Positions 6,482-11,126 of a DNA stretch of 64,000 nt are shown in pieces. The first letter of the stretch is position 1; every line of letters starts with the position of its first letter. Made by a program: the position numbers and the translations under genes. The DNA comes from an uncultured Actinomycetota bacterium. Lineage in GTDB: Bacteria > Actinomycetota > Actinomycetes > JAHEKZ01. The notes under the pieces are model-generated. The model ran no database searches. It saw only the letters and a program-made list of their open reading frames with translations, and was not told the origin of the DNA. The stretch lies in NCBI GenBank assembly GCA_963829525.1, contig CAWHIJ010000003.1:1792001-1856000 (forward strand), read 5' to 3'.

Positions 6482-7816
6482 TCAGGCCAGGTCAAGAAAG
6501 CGATCGAGCACTCGGGCACCGAACTCCAGCGCATCGACCGGTACCCGTTCATCGACTCCGTGGAATAGGTCAGCGAAGGCGAGCGAGGGAGGAAGCCGCA
6601 ACGGAGCGAAGCCGTAGCCAGGGATCCCCAGCATCGCGAACGCTTTGGCGTCAGTTCCGCCGCTCAGGGTGTAAGGAACAGCCCGAGCCTGGGGATCGTG
6701 TTCGAGGAGGGACTTGACCATGGCGTCGACGACTGGCCCCTCGAAGGGTGCCTCAAGAGCGATGTCATCGACCAGTGTGCTGCGGGTGATGTCAGGGCCA
6801 AGGAGGCCATCGATCGTTGCGAGGAACTCTTCGCGCCGACCTGGCAGAAATCGCCCATCGACGACCGCGGTGGCCGACCCAGGGATCACGTTCGTCTTGT
6901 AGCCGGCCTCCAGCATCGTCGGTGCCGCGCTGTGCCGCAAGGTGGCCCCGATCATTGGCGCGATGGGTCCGAGCTGATCCACGACTGCTTCGGGAGGGGT
7001 GCCGTCGGGAAGACCGAGTGCGGATCGAACCTCGACAAGGAAGTTCTCAACGGTTGCAGTCATCGTCACGGGGAACTCGTGCGAGCCGATCCTCGCCACG
7101 GTCTCGGCGAGCCTCGTGACGGCGTTCTCACGGTTGACCATCGAGCCATGACCAGCTCGACCCTCAGCGGTGAGCTGCATCCACGAAATGCCCTTCTCCG
7201 CCGCCTCGATCAGATAGAGGCGCAGGTTGTCATCGACGGTGAAGCTGAAGCCGCCCACTTCTCCGATGGCCACACCGACTCCCTCGAAGAGATCAGGGCG
7301 GTGTTCAACGAGCCAGTGCGAGCCGAACAGCCCACCGGCCTCCTCATCTGCGAGAAAGGAGAGCACCAGCGGACGGCGTGGTCGGCGACCGGAGCGCAGC
7401 CGGTCTCGTACGACCGACAGGATCATTGCGTCCATGTCCTTCATGTCGACGGCACCGCGTCCCCACACCATCGGAACGCCGTTGTCCTCGTGGATCTCGG
7501 CGGCGAACGGTGGGTGCGTCCAGTCGTCAGCGTTGGCGGGGACGACGTCTAAGTGTCCATGCAGGAGGAGAGCCGACTCGTTCGAGTCGGCTCCGTCAAC
7601 GCGAGCGAACACGCTCGTGCGACCGGGGGCTGACTCCACAAGCTCGGGATCGAGGCCGACCTCCGCGAGAAGGCCAGCGACGTACTCGGCCGCCTCATGT
7701 TCCTGCGAGCGCGGGTCGTCGCCGTAGTTGCTGGTGTCGAACTGGATGAGCCGCTGGCACAACTCGACGACTTCGCGGGCCGGGTCACTCTCGGTCGATG
7801 TCTCTACGTCGGTCAC
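6482..7816 (-). CDS. M20/M25/M40 family metallo-hydrolase
   Basis: HGHLDVVPA, GRGAVDMK, ADEEAGG and FHGVDE motifs; start GTG 7816 inferred. Confidence 0.92.
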   Translation of the reverse strand: MTDVETSTESDPAREVVELCQRLIQFDTSNYGDDPRSQEHEAAEYVAGLLAEVGLDPELVESAPGRTSVFARVDGADSNESALLLHGHLDVVPANADDWTHPPFAAEIHEDNGVPMVWGRGAVDMKDMDAMILSVVRDRLRSGRRPRRPLVLSFLADEEAGGLFGSHWLVEHRPDLFEGVGVAIGEVGGFSFTVDDNLRLYLIEAAEKGISWMQLTAEGRAGHGSMVNRENAVTRLAETVARIGSHEFPVTMTATVENFLVEVRSALGLPDGTPPEAVVDQLGPIAPMIGATLRHSAAPTMLEAGYKTNVIPGSATAVVDGRFLPGRREEFLATIDGLLGPDITRSTLVDDIALEAPFEGPVVDAMVKSLLEHDPQARAVPYTLSGGTDAKAFAMLGIPGYGFAPLRLPPSLAFADLFHGVDERVPVDALEFGARVLDRFLDLA

Positions 7817-7897: not shown

Positions 7898-7982
7898 GTC
7901 CGAGTGGCGGAATCTGGTAGACGCGCTAGCTTGAGGTGCTAGTGCCCGAAAGGGCTTGGGGGTTCAAGTCCCCCCTCGGACA
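7898..7982 (+). tRNA. tRNA-Leu(GAG)
   Basis: Acceptor stem GTCCGAG/CTCGGAC, anticodon arm CTAGC-TTGAGGT-GCTAG, long variable arm, GGTTCAAGTCC T-loop; CCA not encoded. Confidence 0.96.
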
Positions 7983-8118
7983 CGACCGCTGACCCAAAGC
8001 AGGGCCTCCTGAGTCCTGACGTCCGATGAGTGGGCATCGTGCCCCCGCGCGCCAACTGCGGAGGTAGATCCGCGAACTAGCGACTCCAGGTCCGTCCCGA
8101 GCCGACGATCACGTTCGC

Positions 8119-8484
8119 TCAACCGAAAGCGTCGAACAGTCCGCTGACGAGCGTCACCAAGGTCACGAAGGCGAACACCAGGGCGTTGACGATGATGGCC
8201 GCGAGTGCCGTGGCCTCAGCGTGACGGCGGGCGCTCCAGCCCAGAAGCATCCCGGTGACTGGCAGGGCGGCTACGACCATCCAGAGAATGACGACGCGCC
8301 AGGCGGCATCCCATCCGGTCAACGGGTCCGCGATGGACGGGTCCAGTCCGAGCGCGTACCCAAGGACGAAGCCGACGGTGAGCGCCACCGGCGTCGCCGC
8401 CACTGCTACCCACGCCAGCACGATCCGCCACGGTGTGTGGCTGTCGGAGGTGGTCGGGCCTCGCGGCATCGTGTAGGTGCTCAT
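8119..8484 (-). CDS. Hypothetical membrane protein (about 3 TM)
   Basis: AAGGAGGAG RBS; three hydrophobic segments. Confidence 0.75.
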   Translation of the reverse strand: MSTYTMPRGPTTSDSHTPWRIVLAWVAVAATPVALTVGFVLGYALGLDPSIADPLTGWDAAWRVVILWMVVAALPVTGMLLGWSARRHAEATALAAIIVNALVFAFVTLVTLVSGLFDAFG

Positions 8485-8631
8485 GACTCCTCCTTCCCAA
8501 CTTCCCCCTGTACCTCAATCATGGGCCAGACATGTCGTGCCGCCCAGGGCCACATGACCCGGAAGCTCGACTGCTCAGGGACCACCGTGGCTACTCGCTC
8601 CACACGGTGCGGACCAAGCCCGGGAACGACA

Positions 8632-8666
8632 GACATCCGCCCTCACGAGGTGTGAGAGCGGATGTC
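8632..8666 (-). terminator. Hairpin terminator downstream of the peptide pair
   Basis: Minus strand GACATCCGCTCTCAC-ACCTC-GTGAGGGCGGATGTC: 15-bp stem, fully paired (one G-U) only on the minus strand. Confidence 0.7.
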
Positions 8667-8697
8667 GCCTGTTGCTTGAGAGCGTGAAACCGTCTCG

Positions 8698-8802
8698 CTA
8701 GTTCGCCCACTTCTTGCCGGCGCCGACAACCGAGGCCAGTGCGAGCACCGTTGTGGCGCTCCCGAGCACGGAAACAATCACGCGGGACTTCAGTTCATTC
8801 AT
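8698..8802 (-). CDS. 34-aa hydrophobic peptide B (MNELKSRVIVSVLGSATTVLALASVVGAGKKWAN)
   Basis: Translated by hand; AAGGGG RBS 7 nt before ATG; paralogous to peptide A. Confidence 0.8.
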   Translation of the reverse strand: MNELKSRVIVSVLGSATTVLALASVVGAGKKWAN

Positions 8803-8815
8803 AGCGAAGCCCCTT

Positions 8816-8920
8816 TCAGTTCATCCACTTGGTTCCGGCACCGACGATCGACACCAGGACCGAGACCACGGTGACCGCAGATGCCGATTGCAGCACGGTC
8901 TTGAGTTTCCCTGAGTTCAT
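8816..8920 (-). CDS. 34-aa hydrophobic peptide A (MNSGKLKTVLQSASAVTVVSVLVSIVGAGTKWMN)
   Basis: Translated by hand; AAGAAGGGG RBS; same length and C-terminal motif as peptide B. Confidence 0.8.
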   Translation of the reverse strand: MNSGKLKTVLQSASAVTVVSVLVSIVGAGTKWMN

Positions 8921-9068
8921 GTCCACCCCTTCTTTGGCGTTCCATGGCTGCGACGTCAAGTCGCGACTTCGTTTGCCGTTTCAGGATGGAGCAAGATTCG
9001 GCCAACGCAGCGAGCCGAATGGGTGACAGAGCGTTGTTGGGCGTGGCATTCAGGGCCCCCCAAGATGA

Positions 9069-10160
9069 CTAGTCCTCACCACCCACCGTCGTATCCACCA
9101 CTCCCGTGCGCACGTCGGGCCGGGTCGACCGGTGACGGTGCAGCATTAACGCCCCACCAGCAAGGACCAAGAAGACCAAACCGGCCGCCAACAGCGCCAT
9201 CGCGGCACCAACTGCCTCACCAACCCAGGTGACGGTCAGCACTACAGCGGCGACGGTGGCTGCTGCGATGTACGGCCAGAGCGACCTCAGCAGGTACACA
9301 GCCAACGAAACTGCGATCAGGGTGATGAGAGCCAGGCGCTGTGACCATGCGTCCTCGGGGATGTTCGCGGATGCGAAGAGCGCAAGCAACAGACCAAGCG
9401 ACGTGACCAGGATCTGGTTTCGCATAAGAGAACTGAACGTGCCGACAAGCGCCCAGGCGAGACCCACGGCAAGAAGGGTCCACTGGATGACGATGGCCTC
9501 GTCGGGCATCGTGAGCTGGACCATACCCATGACCGCTGCCACAGATGCGACGACCAACCCGATCTCACCCAGAGGCGTGTCAGCCCGGAGTCGGGCCACC
9601 AGTAGCACGGCAGAAGCCGCGAGAGCACCCAGCACCACCGCCGTCCAGGCTTCGTTGCCCGTGACGTTCTCGTTGTTGGCGAGCATCGCGACCATCACGG
9701 TTCCGAAGGCTCCAAGGGCGCCGAAACTGAACAGCGTACCGCTGAGCCTCCGAAGGGTGTCACCGTTCGGAACGTCGGCCCACGGTCGGCCATGTGTGAA
9801 GAATGAAAGGCTGCCAGCGACCGCCAAGAGGGCGAGCGTCGTGCCAGCCATCACCGCGACCCGAGCCATGAAGGACATGTCGCCCCACTGCTGCGCCACG
9901 ACGACGATGCCTGCCGCCACGACCAGCGCGGCCCCGAGGTAGGCCCCGATTTCAGCGAGTCTGGCAGCGATCCCCGCACGAGGTGCCGCCAGCATCGATG
10001 GCTTTTCGTCCGGACGGTTCTCACTGGTCAGGGCAGCCAACACAGCCCGCGCCTGCGCCTCCGTGATCGTTCGGTCAGCCACCAACTTCTCGAACGGCGG
10101 TGGAAACAAACCACTTGGGTCTCGGTTGAGTTCTGGATTCATGGACACATCGGTGAGCAT
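9069..10160 (-). CDS. Multi-pass membrane protein (DUF2157-like)
   Basis: ITEAQA N-terminal motif, AEIGAYLGAALV, many TM segments; GGAGG RBS. Confidence 0.7.
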   Translation of the reverse strand: MLTDVSMNPELNRDPSGLFPPPFEKLVADRTITEAQARAVLAALTSENRPDEKPSMLAAPRAGIAARLAEIGAYLGAALVVAAGIVVVAQQWGDMSFMARVAVMAGTTLALLAVAGSLSFFTHGRPWADVPNGDTLRRLSGTLFSFGALGAFGTVMVAMLANNENVTGNEAWTAVVLGALAASAVLLVARLRADTPLGEIGLVVASVAAVMGMVQLTMPDEAIVIQWTLLAVGLAWALVGTFSSLMRNQILVTSLGLLLALFASANIPEDAWSQRLALITLIAVSLAVYLLRSLWPYIAAATVAAVVLTVTWVGEAVGAAMALLAAGLVFLVLAGGALMLHRHRSTRPDVRTGVVDTTVGGED

Positions 10161-10205
10161 TGTCCTCACCTCCAACTAAAGGCTAGATCAACACCCTGGT
10201 GGGGG

Positions 10206-10835
10206 TCAGCGGCGAAGGTCCCGCCATGAGGTCAAGACAGCTGCCAGCAGAAACTCGACGGCGTCGTCGACGGTTCGCTCTGTGGCTTCCCTGCTCTTGA
10301 CCATCTGCCAGCTCAACGTCTCCAGCGCCGACGGTACAAAGGGCACCGCGTGCGATGCGAAGTCCCCCGATCTGACCCCCTGCTCGAGCATGAGGTTGAT
10401 AGCGGCATGCCATCGGGCACGTGCAACTTGCGCCCTGGTGAGTCCTTCAGCCTTCACCAGGGCATCGTTCAACCCGCGCAGGTCGAAGGGCATCGTGCGG
10501 TACCACTCCAGGTCCCAAGCCACGTAACCAGCAAATCTGTCGATCACTGATCCAGTCGCGTTTGCTGATGCCACAGCGTGGCCAGCGGGGACGTCCATGT
10601 CGTAGACAGCGAGCTCAGCGAGCATCGCCCGCTTAGAGGCGAAGTGCTTGAAGAGCGATGGCTGACGAATGCCCACTTGCTCAGCGATCTGCCGTGTCGA
10701 CGCCCCGCGGAATCCGTGTGTGGCGAACAAGCGAGAAGCCTCGAGCAGAATCCGGTCCCTGGTCGCCCAGCGAGAGGGCCGCTTTGTGCGCAGATCAAGC
10801 ACGTGTCGCTCGGCGTTCTCAACAACTGCGGACAC
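10206..10835 (-). CDS. TetR/AcrR family transcriptional regulator
   Basis: ILLEASRLFATHGFRGASTRQIAEQVGIRQPSLFKHFASK HTH; start GTG 10835 inferred. Confidence 0.88.
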   Translation of the reverse strand: MSAVVENAERHVLDLRTKRPSRWATRDRILLEASRLFATHGFRGASTRQIAEQVGIRQPSLFKHFASKRAMLAELAVYDMDVPAGHAVASANATGSVIDRFAGYVAWDLEWYRTMPFDLRGLNDALVKAEGLTRAQVARARWHAAINLMLEQGVRSGDFASHAVPFVPSALETLSWQMVKSREATERTVDDAVEFLLAAVLTSWRDLRR

Positions 10836-10869
10836 GCCGCTTTTCCCCCGTAGAACGACCCTGCCGTCA

Positions 10870-10889
10870 AGGCTATCGATTGATACCCT
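10870..10889. promoter_or_regulatory. Candidate TetR operator (imperfect palindrome)
   Basis: AGGCTATCGA|TTGATACCCT, 8 of 10 positions pair; about 35 bp upstream of the inferred tetR start. Confidence 0.45.
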
Positions 10890-11126
10890 AGCGCTACCTA
10901 CCTCCACCCTGATCACTTACCATCCGGCAGGTTCGCCTAATCCAATATCCGCGGTCGGCGAACACCCGCCTTCTCGGTACAACAGCAACATCTGCTGCCT
11001 TTGCGTCGGCATCGGCGCAATGCCGAAGGGCGAGCCTCCCGCGCTTCCAGTGCACAGAGCCGCGTCGTCGCCTAGGGTCGTGGGAGGCCACCACCGGTCG
11101 TTCGAGCGGCGTCAAGCGGAGGAAGT

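Follow-up and report, generated by a model that had tools for sequence, protein, structure and literature searches.

Small membrane proteins that regulate sensor proteins are known from Escherichia coli and Salmonella, where MgrB and SafA act on PhoQ. Most membrane sensor domains of cyclic dimeric guanosine monophosphate (c-di-GMP) enzymes have no known input, and MASE9 is one of them. This domain consists of eight membrane segments and occurs with HD-GYP and GGDEF-EAL outputs; its ligand has been proposed to bind probably within the membrane, and the main text that describes it names just one studied MASE9 protein (Galperin and Chou, bioRxiv 10.1101/2021.11.05.467447). The available text on the membrane-bound RmdB of Streptomyces, described as a phosphodiesterase, mentions no peptide partner (10.1101/2020.04.24.060822). 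The genes considered here, pepA and pepB, lie in a 64,000-nt stretch of DNA from an uncultured Actinomycetota bacterium (hereafter the window; contig CAWHIJ010000003.1 of assembly GCA_963829525.1) and encode two 34-residue peptides that end in a shared GAGxKW tail. Judged by their conservation, pepA and pepB are genuine genes of an undescribed actinobacterial family of tiny single-helix membrane peptides. Across the loci compared, the commonest and ancestral position of this family is directly 5' of, and co-directional with, the gene of a membrane GGDEF-EAL enzyme with a MASE9-matching N-terminus, with a DUF5317 gene following. We propose, giving the idea about an even chance, that the peptides are membrane-embedded modulators that bind the membrane part of this c-di-GMP module.

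A preliminary description of the window, made from the letters alone, had reported two minus-strand 34-aa open reading frames (ORFs) with AAGGGG sites, separated by 13 nt and followed by a hairpin. All of these features were found as claimed (Table 1), with AAGGGG 5-7 nt 5' of either ATG and the spacer at 8815-8803, and we judge the pattern to be far beyond chance. The two products have in common the tail S-[IV]-V-G-A-G-x-K-W-x-N, and the synonymous codon differences reported within it (GGT/GGC, GGA/GGC) are genuine. In their own genome, a profile of 47 family sequences matches pepA at an expect value (E) of 1.1e-12 (range for pepA, 1e-12 to 1e-17) and pepB at 5.9e-17. Neither peptide belongs to a family in Pfam or NCBIfam, the sole family match being a sub-threshold one to SecE (E 0.013; 15.9 bits vs a cut-off of 22.7), and the nearest clusters in the ESM Atlas are unnamed 32-34-aa proteins at 0.88-0.89, under the evidence level. 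A library of 1.84 billion cluster representatives yielded 83 matches at E up to 0.001, nearly all of them 29-103 aa long and matched at the C-terminal end. Among the 14 cluster members listed for ten looked-up proteins, five are titled 'hypothetical protein' and the remainder are nameless; the titled relatives are all metagenome-assembled (Actinomycetes, Candidatus Nanopelagicales, Sporichthyaceae). The epithet 'unannotated' that the pair had been given is not quite accurate, since public protein sets already contain the exact pepB sequence, from the source contig itself. In the literature searched, partly judged by title or abstract, we found no published description of the peptide family, and none on DUF5317 under that name.

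The GAGxKW family is defined here by a length of 30-36 residues, one hydrophobic helix with a basic N-terminal flank, the sequence L-x4-G-A-G-x-K-W at 0-4 residues from the C-terminus and a significant profile match; the window pair has the length, helix, tail and profile match of the family. The genome that holds the window (labelled G000; other G labels denote comparison genomes and L labels loci) contains a second pair at G000:C3:2215029-2215246, giving four peptide genes in total; the pepB of that pair, situated before the GGDEF-EAL gene, shares 82% identity with the pepB of the window. A four-peptide profile gave strong matches (E 1e-9 to 1e-19) in 18 of the 19 other genomes of the same taxonomic family, the one genome without a match being 76% complete. 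These matches are mostly tandem pairs ~115 nt apart, with up to 11 copies in one genome. Among 401 genomes sampled across the class, the 47-sequence profile detected a peptide in 56, including 13 of the 22 genomes of one other family and 8 of the 12 of another. The own-family survey takes in the unpublished-flagged genomes G025 and G033, the class-wide peptide count G054, and the corresponding DUF5317 count given below G042, G048, G054, G060, G308 and G372; no alignment or locus analysis uses flagged genomes.

All 59 distinct genes from the fetched loci have an ATG start, a Shine-Dalgarno site and 30-36 codons. In the alignment of 47 sequences, L22, G27, A28, G29, K31 and W32 are invariant, and 0-4 residues follow the tail. 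The preliminary description had suspected selection on the peptide, and the pooled Nei-Gojobori ratios of nonsynonymous to synonymous substitution (dN/dS) point to purifying selection that is strongest on the GAGxKW tail. For the whole gene, dN/dS is 0.165 among 17 first-peptide and 0.18 among 33 second-peptide sequences, and in both sets it amounts to 0.07-0.09 in the tail (codons 23-32) and 0.20-0.27 in the hydrophobic body (codons 2-22); these values come from non-independent sequence pairs with dS near 1.1, almost saturated. Variation among orthologues is concentrated at third positions, with a summed entropy of 12.8/9.5/38.6 for codon positions 1/2/3. A lack of homologues with the motif, or a dN/dS near 1, had been named beforehand as outcomes that would speak against the pair; homologues keep the motif, and the ratios are not near 1.

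The computed hydropathy likewise bears out the hydrophobic core that had been ascribed to the peptides, which are composed like a membrane helix. In pepA the best 19-residue hydropathy is 1.96, in pepB 2.23 (family mean 2.12, minimum 1.54); the hydrophobic moment is 0.08 and 0.16, respectively (family mean 0.16), and no Cys, Pro or Tyr occurs in any family copy. Such a make-up is that of a single predicted membrane-spanning helix of ~20 residues with very short flanks, neither amphipathic nor, as far as composition tells, heavily modified.

The preliminary description had recommended an inspection of gene neighbourhoods, GGDEF genes among them. We examined 21 own-family loci, namely the window and 20 fetched regions. 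Thirteen of these, from all five genera, have the same order on one strand: agmatinase, pepA, pepB, a ~710-aa protein and a ~210-aa protein. In the ~710-aa protein, a multi-helix N-terminal part of ~260 residues precedes the GGDEF and EAL domains; the ~210-aa protein is a DUF5317 membrane protein. Twenty loci from seven other families were also compared. In 19 of them an orthologue of the enzyme (41-59% identity) directly follows the peptide gene or genes and has DUF5317 next to it, the sole exception being an extra copy in G208. The genome of the window has one MASE9-like gene, one DUF5317 gene and two peptide pairs, the second of which sits directly upstream of the membrane GGDEF-EAL gene in a canonical operon at G000:C3 ~2.215 Mb. 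An alternative raised in the preliminary description, that the peptides are small modulators of a membrane protein, fits this home directly upstream of a membrane enzyme. The N-terminal domain of the enzyme matches MASE9 (PF20972) with 31.8 bits in locus L065, above the cut-off of 24.3, and with 17.5 and 19.0 bits, below it, in two other enzymes. Alignment of 24 orthologues revealed invariant polar or charged positions within the enzyme helices (G-E-L-R, D-D, F-N-x-x-Q-Y and D-x-R).

The canonical operon of this genome (L042, G000:C3:2205100-2225099) and the syntenic loci lie amid genes related to polyamines and gamma-aminobutyric acid (GABA), namely agmatinase, a spermidine/putrescine-type ATP-binding cassette (ABC) transporter, an aldehyde dehydrogenase, a flavin adenine dinucleotide (FAD) oxidoreductase, a saccharopine-dehydrogenase-like gene and an aminotransferase. 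A second EAL protein and small GAF proteins are encoded nearby as well. Several of the names rest on a reading of the sequences and not on Pfam. In two distant families, the GAGxKW peptide and the enzyme are separated by a second, distinct micro-ORF (L081:7085-7174 (+) and L082 ~7079-7159 (+)); one ends in ...WGAGHKW and the other in ...VTGHKFG, and both are far less hydrophobic.

The junction between pepB and the enzyme gene has an unusual layout. In 11 of 13 canonical loci, the first in-frame start of the enzyme ORF lies inside the pepB Lys-Trp codons, as the GTG of AAG-TGG (in one locus the ATG of AAA-TGG). In each of 11 canonical loci examined, a 14-bp hairpin starts ~10-14 nt past the stop of pepB; it shows compensatory changes at six of its 14 pairs and lies within the first ~20 codons of the enzyme ORF as read from the Lys-Trp start; by inspection, the stretch just past it varies codon-wise, like coding sequence. 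Outside this family, the enzyme gene begins 50-190 nt further downstream. This layout suggests translational coupling, possibly with control of read-through. It could also be explained if the peptides were cis-acting leader or arrest peptides, with a ribosome positioned or halted at G-A-G-x-K-W blocking the downstream hairpin and thereby setting read-through into the enzyme gene, an explanation to which the conserved residues 0-4 codons from the stop, the compensated hairpin, the overlap of the enzyme ORF with the end of pepB in this family and a similar hairpin after the window pair all lend themselves. We nevertheless regard it as quite unlikely: the hydrophobic body is also under purifying selection and always has the composition of a membrane helix, pepA shares the tail but precedes pepB and no hairpin, the spacing between Trp and the stop is variable, as is the distance to the enzyme, and cassettes persist in two genomes (G007 and G008) without a co-directional gene before a convergent tRNA.

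DUF5317 is present in 53 of the 56 peptide-positive genomes; of the other three, two have weak matches within long ORFs and one has its match at a contig end. The DUF5317 and enzyme genes are translationally coupled, being 0-3 nt apart in most loci. A second DUF5317 paralogue was found with the Pfam profile in six genomes of family f17 (L122-L127); it is 30-35% identical to the DUF5317 of this genome in three of the six loci (tblastn), and it adjoins a membrane HD_5 (HD-GYP-type) protein in the three loci with the neighbour Pfam-scanned. Because DUF5317 accompanies the peptides no less constantly than the enzyme does, and is coupled to the enzyme, and because the peptides also occur in high copy number and as dispersed cassettes in unrelated neighbourhoods, their partner might be something else than the MASE9 enzyme, either DUF5317 alone or a general membrane role (stress, lipid domains), the enzyme linkage then reflecting co-expression. 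We consider this unlikely, given that the peptide is always beside the membrane-domain end of the enzyme, that the enzyme start falls inside the pepB Lys-Trp codons in most own-family canonical loci, and that a pattern search showed no such peptide at the second DUF5317 of f17.

If the peptides are modulators of the c-di-GMP module, they would insert into the cytoplasmic membrane with the Lys-Trp pair at the lipid-water interface and a second helix packed onto the small-residue face V-V-G-A-G; they would bind the MASE9 domain or DUF5317 and so tune c-di-GMP synthesis or breakdown. The distribution of charge adds a further element. In first peptides the N-terminal flank is more positive than the C-terminal one in 26 of 27 cases (mean +2.3 / +1.0), as it is in all 11 single-copy loci; in second peptides the C-terminal flank is the more positive in 22 of 27, with four equal and one reversed (mean +0.9 / +2.15). 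The window pair follows this pattern, with +2/+1 in pepA and +1/+2 in pepB. The positive-inside rule predicts opposite orientations for partners with opposite charge bias, and we therefore propose that first and second peptide may face opposite ways in the membrane and work as an antiparallel pair.

The window pair itself does not occupy the directly upstream position. It lies ~414 kb from the only MASE9-like and DUF5317 genes of its genome and is therefore a dispersed paralogue, like other extra copies in the genus, which adjoin unrelated genes (histidine ammonia-lyase, DUF2252, D-Tyr-tRNA deacylase and GAF proteins). Comparison across syntenic loci delimits a conserved unit of ~460 nt (9088-8624) made up of leader, pepA, pepB and hairpin (Table 1). 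Its nucleotide identity is 85-87% in G007 and G008, which have the same tRNA-Leu/M20 flank and neither DUF2157 nor TetR, and 76% in G004, where the genomic context differs. The window pair is, by these comparisons, a paralogous, dispersed and self-contained copy of the family's peptide pair. In G007 and G008 the hairpin is followed by 69-79 nt up to the convergent tRNA block, with no co-directional gene between, so that there is nothing there for a purely cis-acting leader, and the retention of the cassette counts for action in trans. The portability of a cassette with its own motif and hairpin, with up to 11 genes per genome, argues the same way. We suggest that the window cassette acts in trans, adding to the dose of peptide or supplying a variant of the first peptide, with an upstream control element that it shares with the canonical operon.

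Table 1. Positions of the peptide genes, their signals and the neighbouring genes within the window
Feature	Position	Strand	Remarks
pepA	8920-8816	(-)	34 aa, stop codon within span; first gene of pair; product MNSGKLKTVLQSASAVTVVSVLVSIVGAGTKWMN; tail VGAGTKWMN
pepA Shine-Dalgarno AAGGGG	8931-8926	(-)	
pepB	8802-8698	(-)	34 aa, stop codon within span; second gene of pair; product MNELKSRVIVSVLGSATTVLALASVVGAGKKWAN; tail VGAGKKWAN
pepB Shine-Dalgarno AAGGGG	8814-8809	(-)	
GC-rich hairpin closing the cassette	8625..8678	(-)	about 22 nt past pepB stop
Cassette leader	8921..9088	(-)	~150-170 nt 5' of pepA; aligns with G004, G006, G007, G008; long invariant runs
Leader motif TCACCCATTCGGC	9026-9014	(-)	
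Near-palindrome GGACTAGTCA	9075-9066	(-)	cassette upstream edge; overlaps DUF2157 stop codon
tRNA-Leu(GAG)	7898..7983	(+)	convergent with cassette; part of conserved flank
121-aa ORF, four predicted membrane helices	8119..8484	(-)	downstream; outside conserved unit; no family
DUF2157 membrane protein, 368 aa	9069..10175	(-)	upstream; PF09925 E 4e-8
TetR regulator	10206-10916	(-)	further upstream; TetR_N E 5e-14

The near-palindrome at the upstream edge reads TGACTAGTCA in other copies, and its core GACTAGTCAT is invariant in five aligned copies, even without DUF2157. The leader also contains a motif that recurs throughout the family: CACCC[AG]NN[CT]GG is present in 25 of 29 distinct family leaders, 85-138 nt (mostly 104-112) before the first ATG, against a background of 0.0056 per 200-nt window. 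The strict form TCACCC[AG]TT[CT]GGC occurs seven times in the genome vs 0.53 expected. One copy precedes each of the two peptide loci, at a distance of 105-108 nt from the first ATG (the canonical copy at G000:C3 ~2215342 (-)), and five lie elsewhere. A looser form occurs 22 times vs 9.4 expected, and 15 of these 22 look intergenic. Related words stand in either orientation 5' of loci in other families, and a DNA site therefore fits better than an RNA element. The motif may be the sign of a small regulon or of a special type of promoter; a BldD box and an extracytoplasmic function (ECF) sigma factor promoter were considered, and neither could be fitted. A simple scan of the cassette region found no sigma-70-like site, and Rfam searches returned tRNAs only and no riboswitch, including c-di-GMP-I (RF01051), in the window at 7900-10300 (E up to 1) and in 12 related loci (E up to 0.1).

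At the other end of the cassette, the hairpin had been described as strand-specific, which holds in part. The minus strand folds as claimed (8697-8615; -40.9 kcal/mol, z -5.1, a value that none of 200 shuffles reached); the plus strand of the region folds as well (-35.9, z -4.0), and the specificity is therefore only partial. The stem is kept in all five cassette copies; in G004 both of its arms show a swap of A-T to T-A. It is likely a factor-independent terminator or an RNA-stabilising stem without a U-run, and a simple terminator scan missed it because there is no T-run. Metatranscriptome contigs from four runs, short and of low depth, cover 8254-8490, 8909-9065, 9325-9632, 9758-9929 and the tRNA; none lies on 8698-8908, although such contigs cannot show absence and the libraries may contain DNA.

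Around the cassette, the tRNA-Leu and an M20 peptidase form a flank common to four genomes (G000, G006, G007 and G008). DUF2157 and TetR, named in the preliminary description as the nearest candidates, stand beside the cassette in just two of the four, G000 and G006. The 121-aa ORF between cassette and tRNA-Leu is found in G000 only, being absent from G007 and G008 and unmatched in G006, and looks like a recent insertion next to the tRNA gene. DUF2157, TetR and the 121-aa protein were accordingly ruled out as local partners, not being conserved beside the cassette. In G006 (L087/L041, G006:C115) pepA is kept, the middle of pepB is deleted (~36-nt gap) and its N-terminal part is changed, which looks like a decaying copy. 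Elsewhere, tandem arrays of five or six peptide genes occur at G009:C70:16095-17350 (L033, L045) and G005:C8:43358-44140 (L031). In the G009 array, the pair is repeated three times with a period of ~510-530 nt, ~0.5 kb from three tRNA genes and between DUF2252/DUF1348 and a histidine ammonia-lyase gene.

No exporter, peptidase, modifying, immunity or transporter gene recurs beside the cassettes in the loci examined. This bears on two further explanations. The preliminary description had favoured peptide signalling of the streptococcal SHP/ComS kind, and the peptides might indeed be exported or processed signals, cleaved in the membrane, for example by DUF5317, with a KW piece sensed outside by MASE9 in a quorum-type control of c-di-GMP. 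A basic N-terminal end, a hydrophobic core, a conserved C-terminal end and multiple variant copies per genome would suit such signals, as would the two invariant Asp residues of DUF5317 in G-D contexts, which may resemble those of intramembrane aspartyl proteases. A search for the Rgg C-terminal domain (RGG_Cterm), with a positive Lactococcus control, however turned up no Rgg-type receptor in the 97% complete genome, no ABC exporter, peptidase or modifying enzyme is recurrent, and the family has no Cys, Pro or double-glycine leader. An AlphaFold model of DUF5317 (predicted local distance difference test (pLDDT) score 80.7) gave nothing protease-like: Foldseek returned no match below E 5, and VIA-align only generic helical-hairpin matches (Z up to 7.1), from which no fold can be assigned. 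The signalling claim is not supported in its streptococcal form, and its wider form is improbable. A bolder extension of the modulator proposal, which we hold to be quite improbable, is that an antiparallel membrane heterodimer would be the intramembrane ligand of MASE9, with extra cassettes, driven by the shared upstream element, forming a dosage or variant code that sets c-di-GMP; in its boldest form, DUF5317 would also cleave the peptides and release a KW-containing fragment, linking cell-to-cell signalling with c-di-GMP.

The second explanation is that the peptides damage membranes, as a type I toxin, a leaderless two-peptide bacteriocin or a modulin-like pair, and spread selfishly or competitively. 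Genes that are small, hydrophobic, paired, multi-copy and tandemly amplified, with some arrays beside tRNA genes, could be read in this way. This is highly improbable, since moments of 0.08-0.16 denote a non-amphipathic helix, the cassettes have no recurrent immunity or transporter gene, the position before the signalling enzyme is vertically stable in at least eight families, and the short tail is under strong purifying selection.

Several observations weigh against the peptides being modulators of the MASE9 enzyme. With the window pair away from the enzyme, its link to the enzyme rests on paralogy and the shared motif. In this genome's enzyme, PF20972 reaches 21.0 bits (21.4 genome-wide), below the 24.3 Pfam cut-off. 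DUF5317 is found in 183 of the 401 genomes vs 56 for the peptides, so the module exists without recognisable peptides, unless these have diverged past the profile. A pattern search found no GAGxKW ORF beside the second DUF5317 of f17; because this paralogue stands beside HD_5 instead, DUF5317 seems to partner membrane c-di-GMP enzymes generally, and the peptides only their GGDEF-EAL branch. The conserved hairpin directly after pepB at the enzyme junction also fits a cis-regulatory role, the copy number reached in some genomes is more than a simple stoichiometric partner needs, and the idea of opposite orientations relies on a charge difference of only about one unit per flank.

Set against the general lack of inputs for membrane sensor domains of this class, a dedicated micropeptide encoded before such an enzyme is a concrete candidate partner. 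The family also exposes an annotation gap, in that genes of ~34 codons are called sporadically and at best as 'hypothetical protein', yet are strongly selected. In this genus the peptide pair forms a portable cassette that offers natural variants, and every carrier seen is uncultured. What this analysis newly adds is the dispersed-cassette structure, the upstream motif common to the loci and the opposite bias in flank charge.

Compared with described systems, the loci differ from riboswitch-gated micropeptide loci (c-di-GMP-I, RF01051) in having no Rfam riboswitch in their leaders, and from leaderless or two-peptide bacteriocins and modulins, which are amphipathic cationic helices with nearby immunity or transporter genes, in having neither feature. 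They resemble TnaC and SpeFL in length (~24-34 codons), in critical residues near the stop and in an RNA element just downstream, which controls the next gene there and may do so here, but the peptides here are membrane-helix-like throughout, are paired and persist without a downstream gene. SHP/Rgg and ComS/ComR of streptococci likewise have a short ORF with a basic N-terminal end, a hydrophobic body and a conserved C-terminal end; theirs is another phylum, and here no Rgg-family receptor turned up in the genome, the neighbours of the window pair are DUF2157, TetR and a 121-aa protein of no known family, the conserved neighbour of the family is a membrane enzyme and not a cytoplasmic receptor, and nothing found points to export or processing. 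The paired small multidrug resistance (SMR) transporters EbrAB and YdgEF and the dual-topology EmrE share with pepA and pepB an opposite Lys+Arg bias across the helix and, in the pairs, adjacent paralogous genes, although they have four helices and transport substrates, whereas each peptide here has a single helix with an orientation predicted from a one-charge difference. MgrB and SafA are alike in being single helices of a few dozen residues, encoded or co-controlled with a membrane sensor, on which they are proposed to act through contact between helices in the membrane. They differ in having no sequence relation to the peptides here (no Pfam or NCBIfam match) and in acting on a histidine kinase, the proposed target here being a c-di-GMP enzyme with MASE9; the present peptides form a conserved pair with extra dispersed cassettes and are known from sequence and linkage. 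The MASE9 enzymes described earlier (bioRxiv 10.1101/2021.11.05.467447) are set apart by a main text that names no peptide partner and no DUF5317, and by the sub-threshold score of this genome's enzyme. The likeness to them lies in the partner enzyme, the N-terminal domain of which matches PF20972, above the cut-off in L065, in a MASE9-GGDEF-EAL architecture listed there, with conserved charged and polar residues inside its helices.

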